Assembly (NCBI GenBank): GCA_018653085.1
Contig: JABIAY010000049.1
Coordinates: forward strand, 118,335-182,334
Length of the DNA: 64,000 bases
DNA from: Nitrospina sp.
GTDB lineage: Bacteria; Nitrospinota; Nitrospinia; Nitrospinales; VA-1
Direction: 5' to 3'
The notes beneath the pieces are model-generated. The model had not been told where the DNA came from. It saw only the letters and a program-made list of their open reading frames with translations, and made no database searches. Positions 12,884 through 60,428 of this stretch are shown here, piece after piece. The stretch's first letter is position 1. Every line of letters starts with the position of its first letter. The position numbers were made by a program, and so were the translations under genes.

Positions 12884-12928
12884 GGGTTTCTCTATCTCCA
12901 GATCATTGAGTAATTATATTATACATGA

Positions 12929-13993: not shown

Positions 13994-13999
13994 GACTTC

Positions 14000-14488
14000 T
14001 CAGCCCCTTGACGGTAAACCCGTCAACCGTCCTGGTATTCCAGTCTGACGCCGGGGATTGCTTCCACGAAAAATGTTCAATGTTTTCGGAATATTTTCTT
14101 TCATGGCTTCCATGCCATGCTGAGCGGAAGGTAAGGTCAAACCCCACTCGGGGTCATAGATACCCGCCAGCATTGCATCCTGCCCCAAAACCTGTATGAC
14201 AATAAATTTTTCAATGGAATGTTTTTTTTGCACTTCCAGTGGCATCATCAGGGTTTCATTCTCATTCTTGGAGCCCCTGCGCATCACCGCCTTGCCCGAC
14301 TCGACCGCATCAAAAGATATCGAGGCAATATAGTCGCCCAGTGATTTGAAAATGTATTTTTTGGGAAAAACAACGATGCCATAGTTTTCGCTGTTTTTGT
14401 AGAGCTGGTAGTCGTAACCGGACCCGGCCCGGGCTTGTAAGGGGGCAAGGAAAACCGTCAGGACTATGAGAGTTATGAAATGTTTCAT
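14000..14488 (-). CDS. exported hypothetical protein
   Basis: ATG at 14488 gives MKHFITLIVLTVFLAPLQARA, which is signal-peptide-like. 6-nt gap to the radical SAM gene. Confidence 0.55.
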   Translation of the reverse strand: MKHFITLIVLTVFLAPLQARAGSGYDYQLYKNSENYGIVVFPKKYIFKSLGDYIASISFDAVESGKAVMRRGSKNENETLMMPLEVQKKHSIEKFIVIQVLGQDAMLAGIYDPEWGLTLPSAQHGMEAMKENIPKTLNIFRGSNPRRQTGIPGRLTGLPSRG

Positions 14489-14520
14489 AATATCGATAAT
14501 ACTCCACCCGCCCACTTCCG

Positions 14521-14766
14521 TGGGAGGAAATCAGCAATATCTACCCCTCCGGGGCACTAAGTTTAAGGGGGGATATCACGTACGTACTGGCCCCACGCCT
14601 TCGGCGGTCGCAGTAGCGTCACCGCCACATTGCCACCGGCGGCTCGCCGGCCACGCCTGGTGCTGCTGCCGCAGGGGCAACTGGGCAAGGGCTCATCAAG
14701 CCGAAATAACTCTTTGCTCGCCAGATAAAGCGATGGCACACTGGTCCCACGCCTGGTGGCTAGTGG
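14521..14766. repeat. degenerate double copy of the intergenic hairpin-repeat family (see 59097-59408)
   Basis: 14686-14766 (gcaagggctcatcaagccgaa..ccagataaagcgatggcacactggtcccacgcctggtggctag) aligns with the reverse complement of the 97-bp unit. There is a perfect palindrome ccggcg-gct-cgccgg at 14636-14650. The motif aggcgtggg occurs three times on the minus strand. Confidence 0.7.
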
Positions 14767-15173
14767 ATTTCGTCCGGGGTGAAGAAATAGGATATTTCAA
14801 ATGCTGCAGTTTCCGGCGCATCTGAGCCATGTGAAGTATTTCTTTCAATGTTCTCGGCAAAATCCTTTCGGATGGTGCCCGCTTCGGCATCTGCCGGATT
14901 GGTGGCACCCATTAGCTTTCGCCAGTCGGGAATAGCATTTTCTTTTTCAAGGACGAGTAAGACAACAGGCCCTGAACTCATGGTGGTGGTCATGCCATCG
15001 AAAAAAGGCCGTTCCTTGTGGACAGCATAAAATCCTTCAGCCTGAGCCTTGCTGAGCAGAGTTCGTTTCATAGCAACGATTCTAAAGCCTGCCGATTCGA
15101 TGCGTTCCAGAATTTTTCCGATGAGGTTGCGTTCCACGCCGTCAGGTTTGATGATAGCAAAAGTTCTTTCCAT
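14760..15173 (-). CDS. ndk: nucleoside-diphosphate kinase
   Basis: 137 aa with [13 protein letters not shown] and the active-site motif NTSHGSD. Confidence 0.95.
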
Positions 15174-15202
15174 TTCAGGGCTTTCTTTTAAGGTTTATGA
15201 GT

Positions 15203-15246
15203 AAAATAAAAAAAAGGTATTTGAGCGGTGAAGCCCAAATACCTTT
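15203..15246 (-). terminator. rho-independent terminator after the OFOR operon
   Basis: On the minus strand: aaaggtatttg.g.c / g.c.caaataccttt, a stem of about 13 bp with one mismatch, followed by TTTTTTTTATTTT. Confidence 0.7.
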
Positions 15247-15261
15247 TAGTAAAGCAAGAAT

Positions 15262-15525
15262 CTATCGAAGAACAATTCCAGATTTTTTAATGACAAATCC
15301 TTCGTCCAGTTCTTCAATCCATTTCATTTTAATGGCATCATTCTTAGCGATATCGGAACAGATGTAGACACAAATCTCACAAGCCTTGCACCGGTCTACG
15401 GAGACATAAGCCGACTTATCGGCTTCGCTGTAATTGATACAATTAGTTTCAGGGCAGTATTGCGTACAGAGATGGCAGTTCTTAGCCGAACATATCTCCT
15501 TGTTAACTTCAGCAATGTAGTACAT
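15262..15525 (-). CDS. 2-oxoacid:ferredoxin oxidoreductase delta subunit (2x[4Fe-4S] ferredoxin)
   Basis: 87 aa with two Cys clusters (C..C..C...CP and CKACEICVYIC). Last gene of the OFOR operon. Confidence 0.8.
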   Translation of the reverse strand: MYYIAEVNKEICSAKNCHLCTQYCPETNCINYSEADKSAYVSVDRCKACEICVYICSDIAKNDAIKMKWIEELDEGFVIKKSGIVLR

Positions 15526-15545
15526 GTTCTCTCCAGTCTTTAACG

Positions 15546-16250
15546 TTACGCGGTGGCTTTAGCAGGTTGTTCGGCCTCAGACCAGCCTTGATCGATGGCG
15601 TATTGAACAGCCGCATCCAAAACTTTCTGGTTTGCTTCCAGCAGTTTTTGTTTCTTAGCAAATTTTTTCTCAATAGCACTGTCCAAAGCAGCCGTACCAC
15701 CGGACACTACGATACCTTTTCCGACGAACCGGTCTTTAACGGATGCCGCTAAAGATGCTGGGTCGGGGAGACCAAAAATCCCGGAAATAGCACCACACAT
15801 GGCCATATTGGTAGCCAGGTCTGTTTTTGCCAGTTCATTGGCCATTTCCGTGGCAGGCAGATAGTAAATGCGCGCTTCTTTTTCTTCCAGCTCCCTTTGC
15901 TCATCCGGGGTGAACGGAATCAGTTTCTTGCTGTTGATGAGAATGATTCCATTCTGTTTCAGGCCGGTATAAAACGGCATGGTATAGGACTTGCCCAGCG
16001 TGATTACGGAAGGATGAAAAATCATGAGAACGTTCGGATAGATGATTTCTCCAATCTCATAAATCGTTTCGTTGGAGATGCGGACATAACTCTCAACAGG
16101 GGCATTCCGTTTTTCTGACCCGAAAAAAGGAACCAGGGAACTGAAACCACCGGAAATAACCACCCCGTTACTGATAATGTGGGATGCCGTGACCACACCC
16201 TGACCGCCAATTCCTGCCATACGAATGTTATAGCGCTTAGCTTCTGACAT
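15546..16250 (-). CDS. 2-oxoacid:ferredoxin oxidoreductase gamma subunit
   Basis: 234 aa. N-terminal IRMAGIGGQGVVTA is typical of POR/KOR gamma subunits. Confidence 0.85.
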   Translation of the reverse strand: MSEAKRYNIRMAGIGGQGVVTASHIISNGVVISGGFSSLVPFFGSEKRNAPVESYVRISNETIYEIGEIIYPNVLMIFHPSVITLGKSYTMPFYTGLKQNGIILINSKKLIPFTPDEQRELEEKEARIYYLPATEMANELAKTDLATNMAMCGAISGIFGLPDPASLAASVKDRFVGKGIVVSGGTAALDSAIEKKFAKKQKLLEANQKVLDAAVQYAIDQGWSEAEQPAKATA

Positions 16251-16268
16251 TTTTAGTTTCTCCTCTGA

Positions 16269-17159
16269 TCAGTCTGATTTTTTCTTTTTCGGTTTTTTCT
16301 CAACTTCATCCAGATACGCTTTTGCCGCAGGTGAAATGATTTCTTCAAAACCATAGCGTTCTTTTTCTATCTCGAAGGCATCTTTCATTACATCCGGCGT
16401 TGGGATTGAGTACTCGATGTTGCAGGAGGTATAGGCCTGAATGTAGCTGTGTCCCACTTCCCGAGCAACCATGATAGCGCGACGAACGGTGCGAGCTACC
16501 CGCGCGGGGTTGGTCGGAGCAAGACGGGCGATATAGTCTACGCCAGCAACTTTAGCCAGACCCAAGGCATCGATCTTCTCACCGAATTTTCCACGCGGAG
16601 CCATTTTCATAACTTTGCCCTGATTGGTCATGCCGCTTTCCTGACCACCGGTGTTTCCGTAAACTTCATTGTCGAGCATGATGGTGGTGAATTTTTCTTT
16701 GCGGAACCAGCTATGCATCAATCCCTGGAATCCGATGTCGATCAGTCCGCCGTCACCGGCCATGACCACAACGTCTTTTTTCTGGTTGGGGAAACGTACT
16801 TCGAGTCCTCGTTTCAGACCAGAAGCCACTGCATTGGTGTCGCCGTAGTTGCCGTAGACAAATGGTACAGAAGCCTGGGAAATTGCCAGACGACCACAGC
16901 CAGCGGTGCCAACAACGATGGTGTGTTCAGGGTTGGGCATTCCAATATAAGTGAGACGGATGAACAGGGTCATCGCGCAGCCTGCACACATGGGATGTTC
17001 TTCAATAATTTCCTTGAATTTACCCATATCAGTAACTTTAACGGTTTGTCTGTCTGAATCACCGCGGTTATTGTAGGGGCCGTGTTCCACCAGATCCCTG
17101 TATTCGATGGGTAAAAAGTCTTTAAATGCCGGGGAAGGGCGTAAATTTTCAAGAGACAT
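16269..17159 (-). CDS. 2-oxoacid:ferredoxin oxidoreductase beta subunit (TPP-binding)
   Basis: 296 aa with a CAGC cluster ligand region and the TPP motif GDGG..DIG...N. Confidence 0.9.
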   Translation of the reverse strand: MSLENLRPSPAFKDFLPIEYRDLVEHGPYNNRGDSDRQTVKVTDMGKFKEIIEEHPMCAGCAMTLFIRLTYIGMPNPEHTIVVGTAGCGRLAISQASVPFVYGNYGDTNAVASGLKRGLEVRFPNQKKDVVVMAGDGGLIDIGFQGLMHSWFRKEKFTTIMLDNEVYGNTGGQESGMTNQGKVMKMAPRGKFGEKIDALGLAKVAGVDYIARLAPTNPARVARTVRRAIMVAREVGHSYIQAYTSCNIEYSIPTPDVMKDAFEIEKERYGFEEIISPAAKAYLDEVEKKPKKKKSD

Positions 17160-17269
17160 AGGATTTAATCCTTATATAGAAAAGTTTTTGAATTTATAGT
17201 TAACAGGCGGGCTTTCGCCTCAAAAAATTATACCTGTATTCAAAATGCCAAGCAACAAACGCAAAGAAG

Positions 17270-18502
17270 TTATTTAACTTCTTTGCGGAACTCTTCCAGC
17301 CACTCAAGAATCATCTCGGTCGGCATAGTCATGCCGCCGAAAACCCGAGGGCCGTCTTTAATGATTGCCTTACAGCGGCCATAGAGTACGGAACAGACTT
17401 CCTTGTGTAGCCAACCGGCCTGATTGAACTCAGGGATCAGGATGCGCTTGGCATCTTTAACCGCTTCAAGGATTTCTTCCGTCGGGAAAGGGCGAATGGT
17501 TTTGACTTTAACCAGACCCACTTTCCGGCCCTTTTCCCCTTCCTGCCGAACCGCTTCGCGGGCCTGAGAGACTGCACAGCCGGAGGCAATGATGAAATCG
17601 TCGGCGCCAGGATTAACCACTTCAACCAAGCCGCCAAGATATTTATCGAAGTATTTTGCGGAACGTCCTACTGCCGCAAAAACTTCCTGCTGCCAACTGG
17701 AGTGCATGTGGTAACTGATGAAATTACTTTTTTGAATTGGGGCATCCCGCGAGAGACGCGCTGGGGGATTTTCGTTGTCCATTGCTGGGACTGCCGAACG
17801 CCAACCGTCTCGCGGAGGCAGTTTATATTCCTCCGGTGTGATCGAAACCGGGCCGCGGGCATGGGTCACGAAAAATCCATCTGTTGAGACAACAGCGGGT
17901 AAGGTGACATCGACCTGTTCAGAGGCCATGATTGCCGCAAGCGGGTAATCGTAAAAGTCCTGCTGGTTTTCAGCGTGAAGCATAAGAATTCCGGTATTCA
18001 GCATGAATGACATTTCAATGTTATCCGGCTGAATGGCCAAAGGCGTGTTAATAACCCGGCACATATTGAGCATGATGATCGGGGTTCTCGCACCCGGCCA
18101 GGAACTGATAGCTTCCAAACCGCGCATCAGGCCAGGGCCTGAAGTTGCCGTCAAGCTACGTACTCCCGCGCGGGACGCACCAGAGATTGCAGAGAAGGTA
18201 CCGATTTCTTCTTCGCCCCGGTAATACTCTTTGATATAGCCTTCATCGTAAAGGTAGCCAGCTTGTTGCATGGACTCACTCTGCGGAGTGATGGGGTAGG
18301 CAATTGCTATATCTATGTTTGCGCGTCTCATGGACTCTCTTGCCGCTTCACTTCCCGTGATAAACTGTTTCTCGCGGGGAAGCTCATGAAACATTTTCAT
18401 GGGGTCTACTGCTGTTTGCCTTTCACTCCCAGGCACCCAATCAGCCGCTTTCCCTTCATCGACAGCATTTCTGTTGACTGCCGCGCCTTTCACATTTGCC
18501 AT
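17270..18502 (-). CDS. 2-oxoacid:ferredoxin oxidoreductase alpha subunit
   Basis: 410 aa with AYPITPQSE and TATSGPGL motifs of the POR/KOR alpha subunit. Confidence 0.9.
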   Translation of the reverse strand: MANVKGAAVNRNAVDEGKAADWVPGSERQTAVDPMKMFHELPREKQFITGSEAARESMRRANIDIAIAYPITPQSESMQQAGYLYDEGYIKEYYRGEEEIGTFSAISGASRAGVRSLTATSGPGLMRGLEAISSWPGARTPIIMLNMCRVINTPLAIQPDNIEMSFMLNTGILMLHAENQQDFYDYPLAAIMASEQVDVTLPAVVSTDGFFVTHARGPVSITPEEYKLPPRDGWRSAVPAMDNENPPARLSRDAPIQKSNFISYHMHSSWQQEVFAAVGRSAKYFDKYLGGLVEVVNPGADDFIIASGCAVSQAREAVRQEGEKGRKVGLVKVKTIRPFPTEEILEAVKDAKRILIPEFNQAGWLHKEVCSVLYGRCKAIIKDGPRVFGGMTMPTEMILEWLEEFRKEVK

Positions 18503-18536
18503 GACTTAACTCCTTTTATTTCAAAATATCAGTGCG

Positions 18537-18557
18537 CAGAATTTATAATAAATTCTG
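18537..18557. promoter_or_regulatory. perfect 9-3-9 palindrome in the OFOR leader (possible operator)
   Basis: cagaattta-taa-taaattctg. It lies 35 nt upstream of the alpha-subunit ATG and downstream of the predicted promoter. Confidence 0.4.
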
Positions 18558-18654
18558 GTAAAAACTATAACAAATAACGATTAATTAGGCGGGCTTTATG
18601 GGGGTAACTTGCATTGACTAAAGCCACCTACCGATTTCTTTAAAAAAGAGACAC

Positions 18655-18683
18655 ATATTAGGAACAAACAGCCCTTCTGTCAA
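18655..18683 (-). promoter_or_regulatory. sigma-70-type promoter of the OFOR operon
   Basis: The minus strand reads TTGACA-N17-TAATAT (-35 at 18678-18683, -10 at 18655-18660), about 150 nt upstream of the start codon. Confidence 0.55.
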
Positions 18684-18737
18684 GACTAAAGCCTTATTAT
18701 TGGGTACTTTTCTCCACTTTTTCTGATTCAGGTGGGG

Positions 18738-19061
18738 TCACGATTCCTGAGGTAGGATTTTTTCCAGAGAACCCAGCTCTTCAAAGTACTGAAAGGCCTT
18801 CTGCAAAAACTCGTTTAAGGACTTATCTGTGTAAAATTTAAGGGTTTTATCTGCTAATTCTGTGGAATGGCAAACCTCATATTCTGCAGTTTCAGGGTTT
18901 GAGAACTTGATGACCTCCACTTCCCAATGAATCATGGAAATTTCTTCCTGAGGCCCGGATATAGCAGATAGCCCATAGTTCTTCACCCGGTACAAAAACT
19001 GTGTTCCGCCTAGACCGCTGGGGTTGGAGCGGGTCAAAAATAAATTATCTTGAATAAGCAT
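18738..19061 (-). CDS. hypothetical protein
   Basis: 107-aa ORF with an ATG start. No recognisable motif. Confidence 0.45.
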   Translation of the reverse strand: MLIQDNLFLTRSNPSGLGGTQFLYRVKNYGLSAISGPQEEISMIHWEVEVIKFSNPETAEYEVCHSTELADKTLKFYTDKSLNEFLQKAFQYFEELGSLEKILPQES

Positions 19062-19228
19062 GGTATATCTCTAATATAATAGGTTTTCTGTTGAGCACGA
19101 TGTGACAGAACTCTGTGCACTGATCAATATACCTTAAACGAGGGGACGATCCAAACTCGGGCTGTCCAAATTCGGTTTCGGATGTTATTTTATCAATCAT
19201 TTATCCTCATATTTCTACCGAACTGACC

Positions 19229-19513
19229 ATGCAAGCTATTGAAATGAGTAACCCTGCGGAGATAGAAACCTTTTTAAGCAAAATTCAGTTGACCGGCAAA
19301 GGCTTCACGACTGAATGCCTTCTGGTGGATGTTTATGATGCTGGTTTGGACTACACCGATTATTTGAAGGCCGAGGGTGAAGACCCGGATGCCAGCTATG
19401 AAGGCAAATCCCCGGCCTGGGCCAAATACCATATGCGCCAGGGAAAACGGGTTTTTATGGTTTATGGTGAGGCGGGTAAAGAGCGCCGCACGCATTTTTC
19501 TGAGACTCCCTGA
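19229..19513 (+). CDS. hypothetical protein
   Basis: 94-aa acidic ORF with an ATG start. No recognisable motif. Confidence 0.4.
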   Translation: MQAIEMSNPAEIETFLSKIQLTGKGFTTECLLVDVYDAGLDYTDYLKAEGEDPDASYEGKSPAWAKYHMRQGKRVFMVYGEAGKERRTHFSETP

Positions 19514-19621
19514 TCCCGTGGCTTTCGTTGAATCGATTTTAAAATTTTTCCATCTGATTTAGTAAGGCTGATTTTTTTTCAAGTGGTATCGTCGCTTATT
19601 TAATTTACTTATGGTTTCGCC

Positions 19622-20059
19622 ATGCAATTTGATAAAGAAACACAGGTTCGCATATTAAGGGTTGCCTCAGATCGGCAGCAGGGCAGGGAGGTCGAAGAAC
19701 TTGATGACAGGATATCTTATGTTATGGACCTGCACCCGGAGTTTGAAGAAATCTGGACGATGGGTGATATGGCGGCCTATCCTCAGGAGATCAACGGTCA
19801 GATCGTCAGTCCATTTGTGCACACGGTTCTCCACACCATTGTCGACAGTCAAATCAGAACTGAGCAACCCGAATTTGTGGTGAAGACCTTGAATAGGCTA
19901 CTGGGCCAGGGGTTGGAGGAGCATGAAGCTCTTCATGCAATCATTGCTTCCTTCGCGGATATTCATTTCGCAAGTTTTCGGCAGGGAAAACCCTTCGATC
20001 AACTGGATTACCAAAGTCGACTGGGTTATCTCTCTTATGAGGATAAGGAAGAGAAGTAG
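19622..20059 (+). CDS. DUF1841-like protein
   Basis: 145 aa. SPFVHTVLHTIVDSQI...EHEALHAI resembles the DUF1841 pattern as I remember it. TAG stop. Confidence 0.5.
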   Translation: MQFDKETQVRILRVASDRQQGREVEELDDRISYVMDLHPEFEEIWTMGDMAAYPQEINGQIVSPFVHTVLHTIVDSQIRTEQPEFVVKTLNRLLGQGLEEHEALHAIIASFADIHFASFRQGKPFDQLDYQSRLGYLSYEDKEEK

Positions 20060-20175
20060 TCCGGCGGTTCGCCCCTTGGCAGGGGAGGCCGATAGCAATG
20101 TCTCGTTAGGCCGAGAAAAAAGTTTGCTTGCTCAATGAGGCTATTGCTTACTGGGTCCAGCGTCACGCTGGCTAG
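20060..20175 (-). repeat. single copy of the intergenic hairpin-repeat family between convergent genes
   Basis: ggaggccgatagcaatgtctcgttaggccgagaa...gctattgc...ccagcg-tca-cgctgg aligns with the reverse complement of the 97-bp unit. It is bounded by the TAG stops of both flanking genes. Confidence 0.75.
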
Positions 20176-21041
20176 AGGGCTTTTTGTATGGTCTTGCCCA
20201 GGTCGGCAGGACTTTTCACTACTTTGATTCCACACCGCTTCATGATCTTCATTTTTTCCTCAGCGGTTCCCTGGCCTCCTGAGATGATGGCTCCGGCGTG
20301 TCCCATGCGTCGGCCTGGAGGTGCGGTCTGACCGGCGATGAACCCGACTACCGGTTTGGTAACATTTTTCTTGATGTAGTAGGCCGCTTCATCTTCGGCG
20401 GTCCCACCGATTTCACCGATCATGCAAATGGCTTTGGTGCCCCGGTCTCGTTGGAACAGTTTCAGTACATCGATGAACCGTGTACCGATGATGGGGTCGC
20501 CGCCAATTCCGACACAGGTGGACTGACCGATTCCCAACGCGGTCAACTGACCAACGGCTTCATAGGTCAGAGTTCCACTACGGGAAATGATGCCGACGTT
20601 ACCCTTTTTATGGATGTGGGCGGGCATGATTCCGATCTTTGCTTTACCTGGAGAAATGACACCTGGGCAATTGGGTCCGACCAACCGGCTTTCTGTGCCT
20701 TGCAGATATTTATAGACATTCACCATATCGCTGACAGGAATTCCCTCGGTGATGCAAATGATCAATTCGATACCGGCATCTGCCGCCTCTAAAATCGCAT
20801 CGGCGGCAAAGGGTGGTGGAACAAAGACCATGGTTGCGTTGGCCTTGGTTTTGACTACCGCGTCTCGCACCGTATTGAAGACAGGTACCTTTCCCAATAC
20901 GGTTTGTCCGCCTTTTCCCGGGGTCACACCACCTACGACCTTCGTTCCATATTTCATGGACTGTTCGGTATGGAACATACCTTCCCGGCCAGTGATGCCT
21001 TGCGTTATCAGTCTTGTGTTTTCATCAACGAGTATGCTCAT
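20172..21041 (-). CDS. sucD: succinate--CoA ligase subunit alpha
   Basis: 289 aa with the phosphohistidine loop [15 protein letters not shown] overlap with sucC. Confidence 0.95.
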
Positions 21042-22198
21042 TTTATTGCTTTGACCACTTTTTGGGCTCCATCCTTCATTCCCTTTCCGATGGCGAAGTT
21101 CAGGCCGGAGTCTTTAAGAATTTGATGACCTTCTTCCATATTGGTACCTTCCATGCGTACCACTACCGGGATTTTAATATGTAGTTTTTTTGTTGCGGCG
21201 ACTACGCCCCGGGCAAGAATGTCACAGCGAAGAATGCCACCGAATATATTGATGAAGATTCCCTTTACAGCTGAATCGGAAAGGATGATGCGGAAGCCAT
21301 TTTCAATCATCTCTTCATCGGCTCCACCGCCGACATCAAGGAAGTTAGCTGGTTCTCCGCCAGATAATTTAATAATATCCATCGTTCCCATTGCCAGACC
21401 CGCTCCGTTAACCATACAGCCAATATTTCCATCCAACTTGATATAGTTCAGGTTGAATTTGCTGGCATCCACTTCTGAAGGATCTTCTTCATCCAGGTCC
21501 CGAAACTCCTGAGTGTCTTTATGGCGATACATTGCGTTGTCGTCAATGTCGACCTTCGCGTCCAGAGCCAGAACCCTGTCATCAGAAGTGATGACAAGAG
21601 GATTGATCTCCAGCATGGAGCAGTCTTCTTTTACAAACGCGTCGTAGAGATTAATGATGAAAGGAATGACGGCCTTTAACGCCGCACCTTTTATGTTCAG
21701 GGCGAAGGCTATTTTACGGGCCAGATAAGGTTGAACTCCGATCACCGGGTCCACCGTTTCTTTAATGATTTTTTCAGGGGTGTCTGCGGCAACTTCCTCA
21801 ATTTCCATTCCGCCCGCTTCACTGGCCATGATGAGAACCTGGCTGGTTTCCCGGTCGACAAGAATGCCCATATATAACTCTTTGGCGATGGACATGCCTT
21901 CTTCAATCAGCACTTTTTTTACCAGCCGACCTTCAGCACCGGTTTGGGGAGTGACGAGAGTCATGCCCAGAATATTGCCAGCATGTTTTTCGGCTTCTTG
22001 CGGACTTTTTGCCAGTTTGACACCGCCGCCTTTACCTCGTCCACCCGCATGAATCTGGGCTTTGACCACTACTACACTGGTGCCTATCTTTTTAGCGGCT
22101 TGAGCAGCCTCTGATTTTTTAGAAACCAGAATTCCGTTAGGCACAGGAACATTATATTTCCTCAAAATCTCTTTGGCTTGATACTCGTGAATCTTCAT
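21038..22198 (-). CDS. sucC: succinate--CoA ligase subunit beta
   Basis: 386 aa. [20 protein letters not shown] is the ATP-grasp N-terminus typical of SucC. Confidence 0.95.
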
Positions 22199-22570
22199 GG
22201 ATTTCTTTTGATAAGTATTGAAAAAGTGTGCGCATTTTTAGCATAGGAAAAAGGCGCTTGTCAAAAAATAATAGAAAACCCGAAAACCTTGGTAAAGCGG
22301 CTTTCCCCTGAAAAATCGCATCGCGGATTAAATAAAAAAAGGGGTGGGGCGGGTTAAATCTCTAAACCGAATTAGAATGATATTATGTTGCCCCCTATTA
22401 GCTCTGAGACAAGCACGAGCCAAGGAAGAGCATATTGCGCAAAGAACTCACAAAGTTCTCACATCAAGTTTACGTCGCTTGTGGAATAATTGGACCTGAT
22501 TTTTGTCTTTACTTAGAGTCGAGGCGAGAGTAGATAGAAGCTAGATGTAAATTGTTGTGCTTGATGGTTT

Positions 22571-22768
22571 TTGCCGGATTGGTCTATGAAAAAGAAGGAA
22601 AAGCATAAGACGCTACTTGCGCAAGTGGGGGACTATGTCGGCCGGTATCAGGGAGGGGAGGATATCAGTCATGAACTGTTATCTTTTCTGAAAAACTGGT
22701 TGATGAAACACATTCTCGGGGTGGATCAAAAATATGCTGATTACCTCAATAGCAAGATGGAGGGTTAG
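22571..22768 (+). pseudogene. hemerythrin-like C-terminal fragment (probable remnant)
   Basis: 65 aa ending LLSFLKNWLMKHILGVDQKYADYL, which matches the last hemerythrin helix. There is an in-frame TGA 9 nt upstream of the TTG and no N-terminal half in any frame upstream. Confidence 0.45.
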
Positions 22769-22784
22769 TTAGTTTCTCTGAGTT

Positions 22785-23213
22785 CTAGCATTTTGATGCG
22801 ATATTTTTTGGGGGCTGGTGGTCGCCTTGCCCTGTATTGGTGGACGCGTTGTACAATTGCTCCCATGCTTCGCTAAGTGGGCCCAGTATATTTATGACAG
22901 TTTTCAGGGCTTGCTGGTCGGACTTGATATTCGCCAGTGTCAACTGGCTGAGTATAAATTGATATAAGGATTCCAGGCGCCCAGCCACTTCCCCCCCTTT
23001 TTTTAAATCCAGAGCCAGTGAGAGTTCGTTGATGATATCGTGCGTTTTGTTGATATATTTTCCCTGTCCGGCGATATCGCCCTTCTCAATGCTTTGCAAA
23101 GCCATGGTGGTAAATTTGATGGCTCCTTCATACATCATGAGAATGAGGCGACCTTGACTGGAGGTCGAGATTTCGTTTTTGCGGTATTGATTATGATATC
23201 TTGATGGACCCAT
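22785..23213 (-). CDS. fliS: flagellar export chaperone FliS
   Basis: 142 aa. LILMMYEGAIKF...LYQFILSQL is typical of the FliS four-helix bundle. Located downstream of fliD. Confidence 0.9.
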   Translation of the reverse strand: MGPSRYHNQYRKNEISTSSQGRLILMMYEGAIKFTTMALQSIEKGDIAGQGKYINKTHDIINELSLALDLKKGGEVAGRLESLYQFILSQLTLANIKSDQQALKTVINILGPLSEAWEQLYNASTNTGQGDHQPPKNIASKC

Positions 23214-23250
23214 GCTATTTTATTTCCCGGGTTGTTCAGATTGATTTTTA

Positions 23251-24846
23251 TTAACCACCACCACTGAATAAGGCTCTGATGCCATCAATGGATTGATCAA
23301 AGGCGTCTCTTTGGGAGTTTAATCGCCCCAATAAAACTTCGAGATTGGTAAACTTTTCTCTCAGGTCTTCTTCAAACAATACCAGCCGTTCTTCCAAATC
23401 GATAATGGTCTCGTCATAGTCTGCAATGGTTTCTGTCGCGGTATCGATTTCTGCTTCCAGAGGACCATCCAGGGATGAGTCAGTCAGGTTGGCGAGAATA
23501 CGATTGGTGAGTGCTGCCACGCCAAGGGTTAAAGTGATTGTTCCATAGTCGCCATCGGTGAGGCTGGAGACTCTAAAGTTCAACCCCTCTGCATCTGTTC
23601 CGTCCGCTCCTGCATAAAAGTTTCCTGACCCTGTAGCATCGACAAAAGTGGTGGAACCGGATGTGGCTAACTGTGGCACTCCACCAGAAACCTGGATATC
23701 GTAGCCACCTGATGCGGTTTCGGTGGTGAACCCGATAAAAGTCACTGCAGAACTTGAGGTGCTACCACTACTGGAAAATAATTCGCTAACGTTGGTAATA
23801 TCTTCGGCCATGGCATCGGTCAAATCCCCATCGTCAATGGAGAGGGTGCCATCGCTTAGTGTGCGAACTCCGATTTGTGAGAGATACTGAAAATCTCCGC
23901 TCACTCCCAATATTTCCTGACTGGCAGTTTCGCGAAGCTTTTGTTGCAGGTTCTGAACCGCGAAGTTGGCAAACAAAACACTCGTTTCTCCGGTGTCCGT
24001 ATTCAAAGATAACAGGTCATCCAAGTGCACCATCAATTCGTTGAAACCATCTACGTAAGCCTGGATTTTTCCTTTGATCGTGTCGGTGTCCGAACTCTGG
24101 GTAATGGTTCCGGAACCGGCGGACTCTAAAGTGATAATTGTCCCGGTTATGATATCGGTGACTGTGTTAGTGGATTTGGTAATAGCAACTCCATCGAGAA
24201 CAAGGCTTGCGTCTTGAGCGGCCTGGGTTTCTGTAAAAGTGACAAGGGAGCCAGAGACACTGACAGCATTATCTGTTCCTGTCTGCGTTCCGGATAAAAC
24301 AAGGCGAACAGGATTGGTGTCACTACCATCGTTAAGAAAGGTTGCCTGTGCATTTATCCCGGAATTGTTGATAGCAAGTCTCAGCCCATCGGCTGTATCA
24401 TTCGTGGAGTCTATGGTAATGGTTGCGGAGGCTGCTCCTGCCACTATAGTGAATGTTCCCTGGGTAACGGCACCGCTGGTAGACGAAAAACCATCTGAAA
24501 TCAGTTTTGTTTCGTTGGCCAGATTGTTGACTGTTAAGGAAAAAGTCCCTGATGTAGCTTCGCTACTCGTGCTTAAACTGGCTACCGAATTTGTATCGCT
24601 GGAATTATTGTTAGAAAAATTACTTTGAGTGGATAAAAATTTGGCTTCCGTGTTGAGAGTGTTGACCACGCTTTTGAAAGTTTGCAGTCGACCCTTCAGG
24701 TCCTGAAAGGTCAGAAGCTTTGCTTCTTCCAAAGCCCGCTTGGCTTCAACCAGATTAATCGGGGTACGCTGGAGGGATACCAGGTTGTCGATAATGCCCC
24801 CGGTATCGAGGTTGGAGTTGATTCCAAAAATTGCAGCTTGAGCCAC
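23251..24846 (-). CDS. fliD: flagellar filament capping protein FliD
   Basis: 531 aa with a GTG start after GAAAGG. Conserved N-terminal (GINSNLDTGGIIDNLV) and C-terminal coiled-coil regions, with a Thr/Ser-rich centre. Confidence 0.85.
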   Translation of the reverse strand: MAQAAIFGINSNLDTGGIIDNLVSLQRTPINLVEAKRALEEAKLLTFQDLKGRLQTFKSVVNTLNTEAKFLSTQSNFSNNNSSDTNSVASLSTSSEATSGTFSLTVNNLANETKLISDGFSSTSGAVTQGTFTIVAGAASATITIDSTNDTADGLRLAINNSGINAQATFLNDGSDTNPVRLVLSGTQTGTDNAVSVSGSLVTFTETQAAQDASLVLDGVAITKSTNTVTDIITGTIITLESAGSGTITQSSDTDTIKGKIQAYVDGFNELMVHLDDLLSLNTDTGETSVLFANFAVQNLQQKLRETASQEILGVSGDFQYLSQIGVRTLSDGTLSIDDGDLTDAMAEDITNVSELFSSSGSTSSSAVTFIGFTTETASGGYDIQVSGGVPQLATSGSTTFVDATGSGNFYAGADGTDAEGLNFRVSSLTDGDYGTITLTLGVAALTNRILANLTDSSLDGPLEAEIDTATETIADYDETIIDLEERLVLFEEDLREKFTNLEVLLGRLNSQRDAFDQSIDGIRALFSGGG

Positions 24847-24906
24847 TTGGGGGGACCTTTCTTTGGCAGTTAAATTCGAGGTTGCGCACGAATCCTATCT
24901 CTAGAT

Positions 24907-24934
24907 TTATCGGCCTGTAAAAATATAAACTTTA
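24907..24934 (-). promoter_or_regulatory. sigma-28 (FliA) promoter of fliD-fliS
   Basis: The minus strand reads TAAAGTTT-N12-GCCGATAA, compared with the consensus TAAAGTTT-N11-GCCGATAA. It lies about 60 nt upstream of the fliD start. Confidence 0.75.
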
Positions 24935-25103
24935 ATCATTTTAAGGGTCTAAATTTCATACCAAAGCAGGTGGATTTTCTGAACAAAGAGACTGATTAAA
25001 CGGGGCTTAACTCCTTTAAATCTGTATGTTTATAAAAAAACGTTGATTTGGGAGGCGAGAATGCTAAATTAAGGACAATTTTCCATCAAAAATTGCGAGA
25101 AAT

Positions 25104-25721
25104 ATGTCGGAACAACTAGGACTTTTCGGAGAAACAGAGGATCAGGAGGCCCAAAAACCTGTGAAAGTGGCCTCAGGTCCGCGTGTGCAGTATTTCGACC
25201 TGGAAACCCAGAAAAGTGCTGAAGATGTGGGGGGCTGGGGCAATATCCATAAAATGGGCCTGGCTGTCGGAGTAGTTTGGGACAGCCTGGACCAGGAATT
25301 TTTCACTTATGAGGAAAAAGATGCCCGCCAATTGGTAGACAAACTCCGTACTGCTGACCTGGCAGTGGGATTCAACATCATTGGTTTTGACTACACGGTT
25401 CTTCAACCGTATTCCGATTTCGATCTGCAGGAAATAAACACCTTCGATATGCTTGTGGATGTCAAAAAGCAGTTGGGTTTTCGTCTGAGCCTCAACCATT
25501 TGGCACAGCACACGCTCAATGCTGAAAAATCCGCAGATGGATTGGTCTCCCTTCAATGGTACAAGGAAGGAAAGATCAGTAAAATTATCCAGTACTGCAA
25601 ACAGGATGTAGAAATTACCCGGGATTTATTTCTGTTCGGCGAGAAAAATGGCTATGTGAATTATCAGAGTAGATCCGGAAACCCGCTCAAGCTTGAAGTC
25701 AACTGGAAAGCCACCCTCTAA
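25104..25721 (+). CDS. RNase H-like / DEDD 3'-5' exonuclease domain protein
   Basis: 205 aa with acidic motifs YFDLET, GFNIIGFDYTVL and YCKQDVEITRDLF, arranged like Exo I-III of DnaQ/PolB-type exonucleases. Confidence 0.6.
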   Translation: MSEQLGLFGETEDQEAQKPVKVASGPRVQYFDLETQKSAEDVGGWGNIHKMGLAVGVVWDSLDQEFFTYEEKDARQLVDKLRTADLAVGFNIIGFDYTVLQPYSDFDLQEINTFDMLVDVKKQLGFRLSLNHLAQHTLNAEKSADGLVSLQWYKEGKISKIIQYCKQDVEITRDLFLFGEKNGYVNYQSRSGNPLKLEVNWKATL

Positions 25722-25784
25722 CGAGGGAGGCAGAGAGCAATGGTTCATCGAGTCCAGCGTCACGCTGGCCGGCGGCTACGCCGG
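25714..25784 (-). repeat. short (mini) copy of the intergenic hairpin-repeat family
   Basis: Three hairpins: ccctc-taac-gaggg (25714-25727), ccagcg-tca-cgctgg (25754-25768) and ccggcg-gcta-cgccgg (25769-25784). It also carries ggaggcagagagcaatgg, which is shared with the 97-bp unit. Confidence 0.6.
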
Positions 25785-26762
25785 AATTGTTTTGAGCAGT
25801 TTCTCGATCATATCTGCGACTTTAATATTCTCCGCCTCGGCCTTGAAGTTGAGAATGATACGGTGTTCCAGAACCTGACGGCAAACCGCCCGGACATCTT
25901 CAATGGTAGCGGCAAATCTATTGTCCATCAGAGCTTTGGCCTTGGCTCCCAGAATCAGATACTGTGAGGCACGCGGCCCGGCCCCCCAGTCAATCCATTC
26001 CCGAACGAAATCTGGCGTGCTTCCATTTTGATGCGGTCGGGTGCTTTGGACCAGTTCTACCGCATATTTCGCGACATGCTCGGAAACCGGGACTTGCGGT
26101 ACCAGGTTTTGAAACGCTACGACCTGTTCAGCATTGAGTACGGCTTTTAAATCGGGCGACTGCCCGGAGGTCGTGGACAGGGCAACATTAATTTCATCTT
26201 CTTTGCTGGGGTAGGAAACATTGATGATGAACATGAACCGGTCAAGCTGGGCCTCGGGTAGGGGATAGGTCCCCTCGTGCTCTATGGGATTCTGCGTGGC
26301 GAAAACCAGAAAAGGTTGATCAAGGGTGTAGGTGTTTCCGCCAACCGTCACCTTTTTTTCCTGCATGGCTTGTAGCAGGGCCGCCTGGGTTTTGGGCGGG
26401 GTGCGGTTGATTTCATCTGCCAGGATAATATTGGAAAAGACCGGTCCCTTGATAAACTGGAATACTCTTTTCCCCGTTACGGGGTCTTCGTGCAAGATTT
26501 CGGTGCCGGTAATATCCGATGGCATCAGGTCGGGAGTAAACTGGATGCGGCTGAACCCCAGGCTGAGAGCCTGAGACAGGGTGTTGACTAAAAGGGTTTT
26601 GGCCAGGCCCGGTACGCCCACAAATAGACAGTGTCCTTTGCAGAATAAAGCGATCAAAAGATCCTCAATCACTTTGTCCTGACCCACAATGGTTTTATGG
26701 ATTTCCTGAACGACTTCGTTCTTTGCCTTTAAAAGTTCCTGCACTAGTTGCAAATCTTTCAT
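25776..26762 (-). CDS. MoxR-family AAA+ ATPase
   Basis: Walker A GVPGLAKT and Walker B ILADEINR. ATG at 26762 after GGGAG is preferred over TTG at 26768. Confidence 0.9.
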   Translation of the reverse strand: MKDLQLVQELLKAKNEVVQEIHKTIVGQDKVIEDLLIALFCKGHCLFVGVPGLAKTLLVNTLSQALSLGFSRIQFTPDLMPSDITGTEILHEDPVTGKRVFQFIKGPVFSNIILADEINRTPPKTQAALLQAMQEKKVTVGGNTYTLDQPFLVFATQNPIEHEGTYPLPEAQLDRFMFIINVSYPSKEDEINVALSTTSGQSPDLKAVLNAEQVVAFQNLVPQVPVSEHVAKYAVELVQSTRPHQNGSTPDFVREWIDWGAGPRASQYLILGAKAKALMDNRFAATIEDVRAVCRQVLEHRIILNFKAEAENIKVADMIEKLLKTIPA

Positions 26763-26777
26763 GAACAATCTCCCTGA

Positions 26778-41171: not shown

Positions 41172-41329
41172 ACCGGCTCACGACATTTCGGATGTCCTGT
41201 TGAACGGATTGGCGGTATTTTACAGCTTATTCTTCAAGTAGTAAGGTTGGAGATTGAGGAAGTAGCAAGGTTTGGCGTGCCAGTCCGGGTCAATCCATGC
41301 TCAGGTTTTAAGAGTGGCTCTATATACAA

Positions 41330-54592: not shown

Positions 54593-54608
54593 CTGTCACA
54601 AAAGCAAA

Positions 54609-54790
54609 TCCCCCCAACCCCCTTCGTAGAAGGGGGAGCTTCAATGGACCCCTCTTTTTCAAAGAGGGGCTGGGGTGATTTACAACCTCCTGTTAAGCCG
54701 AGCCCCCTGGCAGGGGAGGCAAATAGCTATTGCTCATTTCCTCAAGGCGTAGCCTTGTTGCCAGTAGCCAGCGGCGGCTCGCCGCTAACC
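54609..54790 (-). repeat. hairpin cluster plus short copy of the intergenic repeat family
   Basis: Perfect hairpins cccccttc-gta-gaaggggg (54618-54636), cccctcttt-ttc-aaagagggg (54649-54669) and agcggcg-gct-cgccgct (54770-54786). ggcaggggaggcaaatagctattgc is shared with the copy at 20060-20175. Confidence 0.6.
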
Positions 54791-59096: not shown

Positions 59097-59408
59097 CTGC
59101 CTCCGGCGGCTCGCCGCCACTAGGCGTGGGGCCAACTGGCAATGGCTATATCTGGCTAGCAATGATCTTCTCGGCTCAACGAGCCCTTGCTGTCTGCCTC
59201 CGGCGGCTCACCGCCACTAGGCGTGGGGTCAACTGGCAATGGCTATATCTGGCTAGCAATGATCTTCTCGGCTCAACGAGCCCTTGCTGTCTGCCTCCGG
59301 TGGCTCACCGCCACTAGGCGTGGGGCCAACTGGCAATGGCTGTACCTGGCTAGCAATGATCTTCTCGGCTCAACGAGCCCTTGCTGTCTGCCTCCGGTGG
59401 CTCACCGG
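59097..59408 (+). repeat. tandem array, 3 full + 1 partial copies of a 97-bp unit
   Basis: Units start at 59097, 59194, 59291 and 59388 (ctgcctccgg...). The period is exactly 97 bp with 2-4 substitutions between units. There are no spacers. The last partial unit abuts the holB TAG stop. Confidence 0.92.
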
Positions 59409-60428
59409 CTATGCGGCCTCACAAAATTCGATAAGCATGTTTTCCAGAAACAGTTGGGCATTGGCGTTGCCGGACAAAGCGACCTGGGTATTGCGGACAA
59501 CGGTGAAACGATCCAGCCAGGTTTTTAGACTGCGGGTTTGGGCTATCTGTATCAGATTAGCCGATAAATTTCTATTCTGGATATCTGATTGACTGCAACC
59601 GGAACGATAGAGAGCCAGGTCACGAATCAAACCCAATAATTCATTTAATACGGACTGCAGTTGTTCTGTCTGCTTTGCCCAGGTTTTCGCAAAGGCAAAC
59701 ACGATGTCCATACGGTCGAAAGACACTTTTTCCAGAACTTCCAGTAGTTGTTCTCTTATAGTTTCCATTTCCTCAAAGTCTTCAGCCAATGCCCGGTCGA
59801 CACTCCCCTGTGACCGCTGGGTGTGAAAGTCGAGATCTGATTCTGTCAACGACTCGCCTTTTTCCTGAAGCTGAGATTGGATAATTTCCCTGATCTCTGA
59901 TGAAGAGAGGCGGTGAAACTGTATCCCCTGACACCTTGATAGAAGGGTCGGCAATAGTCTGTGAGGGTTTGAAGATATCAGTATCAGTACAGTAGATGAA
60001 GGAGGTTCCTCCAGCGTTTTTAAAAAAGAGTTCGCGGCCTGAAGATTCAAGAGGTCGGCGGAATCGACCACCACGACTTTTGTTTTCCCTTCATAGGGTA
60101 GATAGGCCAGTTTTTTTTGCAGTTCACGAATCGGTTCAATCTTAATAACCGCTTCCCGGGAAGTGGGGGTGCTTTTAACCGGTTCGATAAAGAAAAAATC
60201 AGGATGGACGCCGCGCTCAATTTTCAGGCAGGATTCGCACTCGTCACAAGCATCCAGTGGGTCAGACCCTTTACAGTTGAGAGCTTTGGCCAGGGTAATG
60301 GCCAACTTTTTTTTTCCGATACTCTCTTGTCCATAAAACAGGTAGGCGTGTGCGACACTGCTGTTTTGGAGAGCGTTTGTCAGTATTTTTTTTGGCTGTG
60401 ACTGCCCCAGAATTTGCTTAAACGACAT
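59409..60428 (-). CDS. holB: DNA polymerase III subunit delta'
   Basis: 339 aa. N-terminal HAYLFYGQESIGKK is a degenerate P-loop. CDECESC zinc module. VVVVDSADLLN (box VI). Confidence 0.9.
   Translation of the reverse strand: MSFKQILGQSQPKKILTNALQNSSVAHAYLFYGQESIGKKKLAITLAKALNCKGSDPLDACDECESCLKIERGVHPDFFFIEPVKSTPTSREAVIKIEPIRELQKKLAYLPYEGKTKVVVVDSADLLNLQAANSFLKTLEEPPSSTVLILISSNPHRLLPTLLSRCQGIQFHRLSSSEIREIIQSQLQEKGESLTESDLDFHTQRSQGSVDRALAEDFEEMETIREQLLEVLEKVSFDRMDIVFAFAKTWAKQTEQLQSVLNELLGLIRDLALYRSGCSQSDIQNRNLSANLIQIAQTRSLKTWLDRFTVVRNTQVALSGNANAQLFLENMLIEFCEAA

Follow-up and report, generated by a model that had tools for sequence, protein, structure and literature searches.

The DUF1841 and sucD genes converge within the window, a stretch of 64,000 nucleotides from a marine nitrite-oxidising Nitrospina-type bacterium, and the whole spacer between their stop codons is filled by one hairpin-ended element. 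The sequence of segment 20057–20175 is as given in the preliminary description, and the two stops lie at 20057–20059 and, on the complement, at 20172–20174. Related sequence adjoins ndk, a moxR-like gene, a gene for a 463-aa protein (463-aa gene), and holB. The features of the five loci are as follows.

20057..20059, plus strand: TAG stop of the DUF1841 gene (Pfam DUF1841), directly 5' of the element
20060..20171, plus strand: full-length element filling the 112-nt DUF1841/sucD spacer (nhmmer match 20072-20170, 75.7 bits, model positions 2-99)
within 20060..20171, plus strand: partial hairpin module TCCGGCGGTTCGCC, first part of the DUF1841/sucD element
20072-20085, plus strand: hairpin H1 of this element, CCCCT-TGGC-AGGGG
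within 20060..20171, plus strand: left arm and core GGAGGCCGATAGCAATGTCTCGTTAGGCCGAGA and right arm GCTATTGCTTACTGGGT of this element
20157-20171, plus strand: terminal hairpin of this element, CCAGCG-TCA-CGCTGG
20172..20174, minus strand: TAG stop of sucD, touching the terminal hairpin
14511..14662, plus strand: older mosaic near ndk, with a degenerate unit at 14511-14605 (CCCACTTCCGTGGG + GGAGGAAATCAGCAAT ... ACTGGCCCCACGCCT) followed by GC hairpin modules, the last being CCACGCCTGGTG
14663..14758, plus strand: 96-nt unit near ndk (nhmmer match 14685-14759, 52 bits)
14760..14762, minus strand: TAG stop of ndk, within element-derived CTAGTGG
25712..25784, plus strand: internally deleted copy near the moxR-like gene (nhmmer match 25714-25758, 29 bits, 5' fragment), composed of H1 CCCTC-TAAC-GAGGG, core GGAGGCAGAGAGCAATGGTTCATCGAG, hairpin CCAGCGTCACGCTGG and hairpin CCGGCG-GCTA-CGCCGG
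25719-25721, plus strand: TAA stop of an RNase H-like gene, in the first hairpin loop of this copy
25776-25778, minus strand: TAG stop of the moxR-like gene, in the last hairpin loop of this copy
54700..54787, plus strand: truncated copy at the 463-aa gene, CCCCCTGGCAGGGG + GGAGGCAAATAGC ... TTGCCAGTAGCC + hairpin AGCGGCG-GCT-CGCCGCT (nhmmer match 54703-54738, 18 bits, 5' fragment; E = 1e-4 in a three-sequence search)
54785-54787, minus strand: TAG stop of the 463-aa gene, overlapped by the last hairpin of this copy
59097..59408, minus strand: holB tandem array of 3.2 units of 97 nt (97% identity), in the sense orientation of holB
59409..59411, minus strand: TAG stop of holB, with hairpin CCGGTG-AGC-CACCGG next on the mRNA strand

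The five loci are homologous copies of one dispersed, non-coding family, with nhmmer scores of 18–79 bits, and the grouping of these loci as REP/MITE-like elements in the preliminary description is supported. The reverse complement of the holB array gave three matches to the family (75–79 bits), which agrees with the earlier alignment of the spacer element to the inverted 97-nt holB unit; the element lies on the plus strand at four loci and on the minus strand at the holB array, again as first described. BLASTN between the five loci returned only 13–19-nt matches, and a profile was needed to demonstrate homology. Those short matches, together with the fact that 2 of the 5 loci are short fragments of 18–29 bits, would fit an explanation by unrelated GC-rich terminator or attenuator hairpins that are merely alike, in which case both the family and its TAG link would be chance in five loci. 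We regard this explanation as extremely improbable, and indeed as already refuted by the profile search, the module order, and the census: three loci score 52–79 bits; dozens of copies in other Nitrospinaceae, with scores of up to 96 bits, keep the same module order; the core motif and the right-end motif in the window both lie above every shuffle; the TAG enrichment persists in an independent census (described below); and a T-run follows just one of the element hairpins in the window.

The window therefore carries a real family of ~100-base GC-rich hairpin repeats set against gene ends, and the family is restricted to one lineage. The exact core pattern had 19 matches among 185,579 species genomes, comprising 17 in Nitrospinales MAGs, 1 on a mis-binned Nitrospina contig, and 1 chance match, and was also present on 55 metagenome contigs. 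In the window and loci L006–L079, nhmmer identified 166 copies, 83 of them non-redundant. The density is ~1 copy per 8–13 kb (83 copies across loci totalling ~400 kb and, for the 64-kb window, 5 loci), although any copy number per genome is an extrapolation from loci picked because they hold a copy. The most frequent 11-mers in the loci are those of GGCCCCACGCCTAGTGG. Rfam 15 gave no match, either at the gathering score or at E <= 1, and literature searches found no earlier description of Nitrospina repeats, RAYT, or IS200. The Nitrospinales hairpin repeat family is thus apparently undescribed, as was originally suggested, but its behaviour has been published for the GTAG-tagged REPs of other bacteria (PMC3733652).

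The anatomy of the ~96–100-nt unit is modular. A copy includes, in order, (i) a variable GC stem-loop, which is an exchangeable module; (ii) a left arm, GGAGGCAGATAGCAAT; (iii) a conserved, AT-richer centre of ~45 nt, GRCTCGTTGAGCCGAGATAACTCTTTGCTAGCCAAATAAAGC; (iv) a right arm with partial complementarity to its left counterpart; and (v) a right-end stem-loop, for which CCCCACGCCTAGTGG may be replaced by any of three or four other GC stem-loops. The terminal hairpins, all of them short GC-rich imperfect palindromes, are of the kinds CCCCACGCCTAGTGG, CCAGCGTCACGCTGG, CCGGYGAGCCRCCGG, and CCCCTTAGCAGGGG. Pairing is kept in 98% of the cells of the terminal (H2) hairpin, 2 of its 4 pairs show compensatory changes, and none of 500 shuffles reached its covariation score. 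The dominant hairpin, CCAC-GCCTA-GTGG, carries TAG in its loop. No GTAG (GT[AG]G) tag was found at the foot of this hairpin, and no fixed tag precedes the left hairpin; it is only before the CCGGTGAGCCACCGG module that (C/G/A)TAG plus 0–2 nt is often seen. In some copies the left end is the exact reverse complement of the right end, so that these copies are true palindromes with ~27-nt inverted ends (perfectly so in L034_10080, L010_1433, and L065_2361), whereas the left arm of most copies has diverged to GGAGGCAGATAGCAAT. Some copies form 97-nt tandem arrays. The centre is the best-conserved part, as judged from copies that the search pattern did not select.

Elements adjoin gene 3' ends, as had been noted for the five loci: 43 of the 83 non-redundant copies (52%) lie within 25 nt of one. 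Neighbouring gene 3' ends are within 5 nt of the element in 42 of 89 cases, compared with a median distance of 62 nt for 5' ends, and the gene context is tandem for 37 copies, convergent for 20, and divergent for 10. With respect to strand, there is a mild preference for the sense orientation (25 to 12, p = 0.047). Of the window's 13 ORFs with a TAG stop, 6 touch an element, compared with 1 of 49 ORFs with a TAA or TGA stop (Fisher p = 1.7e-4). The stop of each of the five minus-strand genes (ndk, sucD, the moxR-like gene, the 463-aa gene, and holB) is a TAG that lies within a GC palindrome or directly contacts one, and to this extent the observation that every copy abuts a TAG stop stands. 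Beyond the window it does not: stops by elements are TAG in 27 cases, TAA in 12, and TGA in 9 (56% TAG), and the "always TAG" rule is a property of the five-locus sample that fails to generalise to 83 copies. The enrichment itself holds in the census of loci, as TAG accounts for 85 of 363 stops elsewhere (23%; odds ratio 4.2, p = 7e-6).

The location of the stops explains this association. Stops are found in the loops of H1 and H2, in the GATAGC core, or just outside a hairpin. Nearly all of those inside the element are TAG, since an ORF that runs into the consensus, at whichever end, encounters TAG before any other stop in two of three frames; the repeats are thus linked to TAG stops because they carry TAG in their own hairpins. 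The hairpin begins 0–2 nt past the stop of the upstream gene in 14 of 25 cases, whichever the stop, and the stops immediately 5' of the hairpin are TGA in 6 cases, TAA in 5, and TAG in 3. The TAG link would then be a by-product of the element's own sequence. Because the GC-rich ends have TAG, in the CTAG/TTAG loops and the GATAGC core, as their only stop triplet, a gene end overrun by a unit would terminate at TAG; genes that keep their own stop have a hairpin starting 0–2 nt later, with any stop codon.

Comparisons with relatives point in the same direction. A radical-SAM gene in L013 continues across the left hairpin arm as far as the TAG in the loop, where it ends, whereas its orthologue in the window has a TGA stop four codons earlier and no element; other genes use either the TAG of the loop or that of the GATAGC core as their stop. 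The DUF1841/sucD spacer documents turnover at one site. In the relative L080 the spacer is empty; both stops are TAA, and the protein ends have not changed (the sucD C-terminus, IQKAL*, is the same). In L081 and L085 it holds a degenerate element in the opposite orientation. At the codon position of the ndk stop, relatives have TAA (L080) or TAG (L081, L085), and more generally, orthologous spacers that are empty or differently filled have TAA or TGA at the same codon positions. Between the two ideas in the preliminary description, an insertion preference for (C)TAG finds no support in the stops 5' of hairpins, in the TAA and TGA of empty or differently filled spacers, or in the surveyed flanks, which show no conserved target, and the capture of stop codons is the better, given the loop-TAG stop in L013 against the element-free orthologue and the TAG of the consensus in two of three frames.

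Whole units are gained or lost. The 96-nt unit at 14663..14758 is present in the window and missing from L085 and L086, which are 95% relatives that keep the older mosaic at 14511..14662. The direct repeat that flanks this indel, CCACGCCTGGTG (12 nt), is the terminal hairpin of the element itself. The holB array has 2.2 units in another assembly of the same species compared with 3.2 in the window, a difference that may reflect short-read assembly collapse. Copies are retained at orthologous sites upstream of serA-like and folD-like genes in several species-level MAGs. From these comparisons we propose that units accumulate in short spacers at gene 3' ends, that whole units may be gained and lost when copies of the terminal hairpin recombine or when slippage occurs between them, and that units persist at orthologous sites across species. 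Gain and loss could alternatively be due to a transposase acting at the terminal hairpin.

By analogy with REPs, the elements may be moved by a tyrosine (RAYT-type) transposase. A tblastn search of the 745 kb of fetched DNA with three Y1 sequences (RAYT/IS200/IS608-type, approximate queries) found no transposase, which is weak evidence of absence; no transposase-like ORF lies between element pairs, where the ORFs are housekeeping genes, and no parent insertion sequence was found within the fetched loci. Listing of all junctions led to the rejection of a TA, TNA, or YTAR target site, and 37 left and 64 right ends showed neither a target-site duplication nor a conserved flanking target. These results bear on the possibility of a classical MITE, which would derive by deletion from an insertion sequence, would carry terminal inverted repeats, and would be moved in trans by a DDE transposase; its target, such as TA, TNA, or CTAG, would often coincide with stop codons. 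The ~27-nt inverted ends of a subset of copies (CCACTAGGCGTGGGGCCAACTGGCAAT ... ATTGCCAGTTGGCCCCACGCCTAGTGG), the non-coding length of ~100 nt, weak reverse-strand echoes of the model at the same loci, and several flanks reading TAA|CC, TTA|CC, or GG|TTA are all consistent with such an origin. We nevertheless consider it unlikely, given that the surveyed ends have no direct target-site duplication, that directly before the hairpin TGA and TAA stops are equally common, that the sole clean indel is bounded by the element's own hairpin without a flanking duplication, that the fetched DNA has no parent insertion sequence or transposase, and that the terminal hairpins can be exchanged as modules, a feature characteristic of BIMEs and not of MITEs. 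An observation that counts against the REP/BIME reading given below is that the centre is more conserved than the arms, unlike in most MITEs and REPINs; this may point to a function in the host or to a site that is bound sequence-specifically.

At the RNA level, the hairpins may be co-transcribed and, by analogy, could protect mRNA 3' ends or modulate expression. The earlier proposal that they act as terminators is not borne out: among the element hairpins in 14000–27000, only that at 25769–25784 has a T-run, and a canonical terminator, at 15247–15212, lies outside the element hairpins. The RNAalifold consensus of 33 copies was weak (−3.8 kcal/mol) and, outside the terminal hairpins, lacked compensatory pairs, including in the centre; single-sequence folds were no better than shuffles (z = −0.3 to −1.9), and the forward and reverse folding energies had a mean difference of 0.0 overall (sense versus antisense, p = 0.74). 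A hint of folding asymmetry in 29 full-length copies was gone when all 39 were included. Two candidate features were also rejected: a mini-ORF (GGAGG, 9 nt, ATG ACT CGT TGA), whose ATG varies to AAG, ACG, and AAA, and an IHF site in the centre, whose match to WATCAANNNNTTR is, by eye, imperfect. 

A host-functional structured RNA or protein-binding 3'-UTR module, with a functional centre and a hairpin at the stop that tunes termination or mRNA decay, would account for the centre being kept in copies that the search pattern did not select, for retention upstream of the serA-like and folD-like genes, for the hairpin 0–2 nt past any stop in 14 of 25 cases, and for the mild sense-strand bias. This possibility is quite improbable in our judgement: elements occur in both orientations relative to transcription, including at 2 of the 5 window loci, the folding results above (consensus, shuffles, and strand comparison alike) do not indicate a structured RNA, Rfam has no match, orthologous copies have decayed (L081) or are absent (L080), and by the serA-like gene the flanking intergenic DNA is conserved too. 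A related and similarly doubtful proposal is that the repeats are domesticated 3'-end modules and not just selfish DNA that is tolerated; their conserved 45-nt centre would bind a Nitrospinaceae protein or RNA, and their stem-loop would be selected for its place 0–2 nt past the stop codon or over it, coupling termination to mRNA decay or ribosome rescue; if true, it would imply a genome-wide layer of post-transcriptional control in slow-growing nitrite oxidisers.

The repeats are most probably lineage-specific, non-coding, GC-rich, hairpin-ended interspersed repeats of the REP/BIME kind (REPIN- or ERIC-like) in uncultured marine Nitrospinaceae. This is an ordinary kind of repeat, and the concept of TAG-linked repeats is not new. 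REP, BIME, and REPIN systems are known from Enterobacteria, Pseudomonas, and Stenotrophomonas (PMC3733652; Bertels and Rainey 2011, PMC3116915), and REPs lie mainly between convergent or same-direction ORFs (PMC3733652). GTAG-tagged REPs are located within 20 bp of ORF ends, and their termini donate TAG stops to the flanking ORFs (Di Nocera et al. 2013, PMC3733652). The Nitrospinaceae repeats resemble REP/BIMEs in several respects: (i) both are short GC-rich imperfect palindromes of extragenic DNA, and in the loci surveyed the Nitrospinaceae copies are likewise dense; (ii) both form mosaics of several hairpin types, in which inverted pairs can fold into a longer hairpin, as well as tandem arrays that vary in length; (iii) both lie mostly between convergent or same-direction genes, at most 20 bp from ORF 3' ends, with termini that supply TAG; and (iv) both are inherited vertically and persist across species. 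By contrast, the Nitrospinaceae unit is ~97–100 nt long with a non-palindromic conserved centre of ~45 nt, whereas a REP is a 20–40-nt hairpin with a variable spacer; TAG is placed in the loop of the dominant hairpin, whereas the GTAG tag of REPs is at the stem foot; and REPs are RAYT-associated, whereas no RAYT was found in the 745 kb searched with approximate queries. In the literature searched, Nitrospinota is not among the phyla reported to have REP-type repeats. The family thus extends REP/BIME-type repeats to a phylum without prior reports and provides a clean illustration of why such repeats associate with TAG stops.

Other intergenic repeats offer partial parallels. ERIC/IRU elements of Enterobacteria and Correia elements (NEMIS/CREE) of Neisseria are imperfect palindromes of ~100–150 nt, found in either orientation in transcribed intergenic regions by gene ends; both have internally deleted and truncated variants and can give neighbouring genes C-terminal codons and stops. 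A duplicated TA target, together with promoter and IHF-site features, is characteristic of Correia elements, and ERIC elements are not known to have exchangeable GC stem-loops at their ends. The Nitrospinaceae repeats resemble both in size, in occurring in either orientation near gene ends, in deleted variants, and in contributing stops, but they have no known sequence similarity to them, and the TA duplication and promoter/IHF features of Correia elements were not seen here. MIRUs of mycobacteria are intercistronic tandem arrays with a unit of 50–100 nt and a strain-variable copy number, overlapping flanking stops and starts. The holB array is similar in having tandem units between genes of one operon, a variable copy number, and a stop overlap; unlike a MIRU, the Nitrospinaceae unit is 97 nt long (not a multiple of three), is hairpin-ended, and occurs mostly as dispersed singles in both orientations.

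Nitrospinaceae are the main marine nitrite oxidisers, and their genomes are almost all metagenome assemblies, in which the repeats give rise to gene ends and stop codons that are artefactual or that vary. Arrays of differing length and indels of whole units offer markers for strain typing. A repeat at about every 8–10 kb breaks assemblies, and the contigs L016, L063, and L084 end inside arrays.

The spacer between the DUF1841 gene and sucD (112 nt) has a G+C content of 58% or more versus 31–42% for ordinary spacers of the window, whose overall G+C content is 46%. Our re-inspection of 20057–20175 matched the sequence reading of the preliminary description, and the two flanking genes end as follows:

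20057–20059, plus strand: TAG of the DUF1841 gene (145 aa)
Complement of 20172–20174, minus strand: TAG of sucD

NCBI names a Nitrospina sp. MAG as the source of a protein with 100% identity to the DUF1841 protein. Among the housekeeping genes of the window are sucCD, flagellar genes, and those for 2-oxoacid:ferredoxin oxidoreductase. Two ORFs of 328 and 324 aa (44973–45959, minus strand; 53140–54114, plus strand) showed inverted similarity of 72–75% in 48–80-nt stretches and are probably oppositely oriented paralogues, 7–9 kb apart. The 9-nt tandem repeat TTTTGTGGA (58120–58209, 9.4 copies, with 18- and 27-nt periods also detected) is located at the 3' end of a 310-aa minus-strand ORF (58116–59048); the C-terminal tail of its protein is therefore repetitive.

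Because pairwise BLASTN among the five window loci of the element gave shared matches of only 13–19 nt, more copies were gathered with a degenerate 27-nt pattern from the common core, GGAGGCNNANAGCAANGNYTCRTYRRG, which was scanned against 185,579 species, each represented by a single genome. Seventeen of the 19 matches were in Nitrospinales or Nitrospinaceae MAGs. Another was in a contig of a Candidatus Peregrinibacteria MAG (L018, CAXCBS010000196.1), which is probably mis-binned, because it is 85–89% identical over its length to the Nitrospinales loci L008, L022, and L024; the last, in a Deinococcaceae contig of 67% G+C, was dismissed as a chance match. In metagenomes, the pattern was found in 55 contigs, nearly all marine and alike in flanking architecture. 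A profile (A1) built from 33 non-redundant copies was then run on the window and the pattern-derived loci, and the census gave 166 copies at a cut-off of at least 30 bits, 83 of them non-redundant. The window loci scored as follows:

20072–20170: 75.7 bits
59097–59408, minus strand, three units of the array: 75–79 bits
14685–14759: 52 bits
25714–25758: 29 bits
54703–54738: 18 bits

These scores indicate that the five loci are one real repeat family, so the homology of the proposed copies, named beforehand as a point open to refutation, holds under profile search. The alignment of the 20057 element to the reverse complement of the 97-nt unit and the orientations initially assigned to the copies were likewise correct. 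Three metagenome contigs (L016, L063, and L084) terminate within tandem arrays of the element, which is evidently a cause of breaks when these genomes are assembled from short reads.

On the strand bearing GGAGGC, the unit has five parts:

Part 1: GC stem-loop, one of several types, CCCCTTAGCAGGGG, CCCTCTAGCGAGGG, CCACTAGCCGTGG or CCGGYGAGCCRCCGG
Part 2: left arm, GGAGGCAGATAGCAAT
Part 3: centre, GRCTCGTTGAGCCGAGATAACTCTTTGCTAGCCAAATAAAGC
Part 4: right arm, TATTGCCAGTTGG
Part 5: stem-loop, CCCCACGCCTAGTGG(T), with the alternatives GGGTCCAGCGTCACGCTGG, CCTGCGGAGGTTCTCCGC, and CCGGCGGCTCGCCGG

In copies found without pattern selection, CCACTAGGCGTGGGGCCAACTGGCAAT is a frequent left end and matches the reverse complement of the right end exactly; such copies are therefore true palindromes with inverted ends of ~27 nt, and the left arm GGAGGCAGATAGCAAT is a diverged form of CCACTAGGCGTGGGGCCAACTGGCAAT. 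The top 11-mers of the dereplicated loci (36–46 occurrences) belong to GGCCCCACGCCTAGTGG, the hairpin of which has 98% of cells paired, compensatory changes in 2 of 4 pairs (A-T to G-C; C-G to T-A), and an observed score beyond all shuffles. No conserved fold was found for the centre of the element (RNAalifold consensus of −3.8 kcal/mol, no compensatory pair), individual copies did not fold better than shuffles (z = −0.3 to −1.9), and the element matched no Rfam entry, whatever the threshold. Another, smaller family of hairpin repeats occurs at 54605–54675 and in the loci L006, L014, L020, L025, and L042. Its sequence is CCCCCTTCGTAGAAGGGGG or CCCCCTKATMAGGGGG, in many cases accompanied by GGGATTGAGGGGGTT; 8 non-redundant instances were counted in about 400 kb, and it frequently adjoins the main element. 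A 27-nt motif, AGATTGAGGAAGTAGCAAGGTTTGGCG, has three intergenic copies of 70–78% identity (41251–41277, 44209–44235, and 49740–49766), with a similar string near 22520, and may be a further small repeat or a regulatory site that the copies have in common.

The element is closely associated with gene 3' ends, which lay inside or within 25 nt of 43 of the 83 non-redundant copies. Nearby 3' ends were within 5 nt of the element in 42 of 89 cases, and gene starts were at a median distance of 62 nt. Copies were located between same-direction (37), convergent (20), or divergent (10) genes or apparently inside ORFs (6); in same-direction spacers, 25 were co-oriented with the genes versus 12 anti-oriented (p = 0.047). 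The preliminary description stated that every copy in the window abuts TAG. In the window, 6 of the 13 TAG-ending ORFs touch the element versus 1 of the 49 others (p = 1.7e-4), and in the census, the adjoining stops were TAG in 27 cases, TAA in 12, and TGA in 9, compared with TAG in 85 of the 363 remaining genes (odds ratio 4.2, p = 7e-6). TAG is thus ~2.5-fold enriched but not the rule; the excess, which had been named in advance as refutable, extends beyond the five window loci. The enrichment results from where the stops fall relative to the element, as surveyed for 25 genes located upstream on the same strand as the element:

Stop 0–2 nt upstream of the hairpin's first base: 14 genes (TGA 6, TAA 5, TAG 3, near background)
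Stop in the left-hairpin loop: 7 genes (TAG 6, TAA 1)
Stop in the GATAGC core: 2 genes (TAG in both)

Where a gene converges on the right end, its stop is within the CCTAGTGG loop or at a CTA/TTA directly after the hairpin. TAG is the first stop in two of the three frames of the consensus, whether entered from the left (positions 7 and 23) or from the right (positions 6 and 28).

Comparison of filled and empty sites supported the earlier idea of stop capture. The window radical-SAM gene, which has no element, ends with ...FAYNFS-TGA at 12929, whereas its orthologue in the locus L013 ends with ...FAYNFVATP-TAG; its reading frame crosses the left arm of the hairpin and closes at the TAG in the loop, a case of stop capture by the element. 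In the relative L080 (DUF1841 85% identical), the DUF1841/sucD spacer is 31 unrelated nt with TAA stops on both genes, and the SucD C-terminus IQKAL* is identical to that of the window. In L081 and in L085/L086 (95% relatives), the same spacer is occupied by an oppositely oriented, degenerate element, and the stops are TGA/TAA and TAG/TAA, respectively; elements have therefore entered this spacer on more than one occasion, and the forward, well-preserved copy of the window is the youngest. The last codons of the window moxR-like gene are within CCGGCG-GCTA-CGCCGG, a hairpin also present in L081, there with the loop GTTA and a TAA stop; L080 has a TGA stop and no hairpin, and the protein length is equal in all three. 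Downstream of ndk, a 96-nt unit (14663–14758) present in the window is absent from L085 and L086; the 12-nt CCACGCCTGGTG from the element's own terminal hairpin delimits the indel, and the ndk TAG is within the element-derived CTAGTGG with or without the unit. Both the window and L083 carry 3.2 units of the holB array, versus 2.2 in L082 (possibly by assembly collapse), and the HolB protein is identical in all three. The proposed insertion preference for CTAG was not borne out, as the 37 left and 64 right junctions examined showed neither a conserved target nor a target-site duplication. CTAG is strongly avoided across the window (32 observed versus 246 expected from base composition or 61 from a Markov estimate), and 8 of the 32 occurrences are within the 996 bp of element sequence (1.6% of the window). 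Between sucC and an RNase H-like gene, L081 carries a block (12876–18925) with a ResIII helicase-like gene, two N6/N4 DNA methyltransferase genes, and an IS1595-type transposase fragment, where the window has flagellar genes; the block resembles a restriction-modification island acquired by insertion.

Hallmarks of REP/BIME-type repeats are hairpin modules that can be exchanged, inverted pairs, tandem arrays of varying size, and persistence by vertical descent over long periods. The element shares them, and the original REP/MITE-like reading is supported. The element differs from REPs/BIMEs in that (i) its unit is long; (ii) its centre is conserved and non-palindromic; (iii) its TAG is in a loop, not in a GTAG tag at the stem foot; and (iv) no transposase is known for it. 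With approximate query sequences, no Y1 transposase (RAYT, IS200 or IS608-type) was detectable in the 745 kb of fetched DNA, and the ORFs between element pairs are housekeeping genes. GTAG- and CGTC-tagged REPs, for which Nitrospinota is not among the listed phyla, are mainly located where ORFs share a direction or converge, in the convergent case mostly within 20 bp of both ORF ends, and can encode C-terminal residues (Di Nocera et al. 2013, PMC3733652). The TAG association is a by-product already documented for such repeats. The family had been put forward as undescribed, and neither the literature searched nor Rfam yielded a published account of repeats in Nitrospina. The family is new, the kind of repeat is already known, and the family and its TAG link are of modest significance overall.

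The intrinsic-terminator role initially proposed was not supported: in the window, a T-run follows an element hairpin only at 25769–25784, and canonical terminators exist elsewhere. Folding energies did not favour the transcribed strand (p = 0.74). Given the single T-run hairpin and the lack of strand preference, only the analogy with REPs suggests that the hairpins may form a 3' barrier to exonucleases. There is a small chance that the element has a host function, because its centre is conserved and its hairpins abut stop codons exactly.
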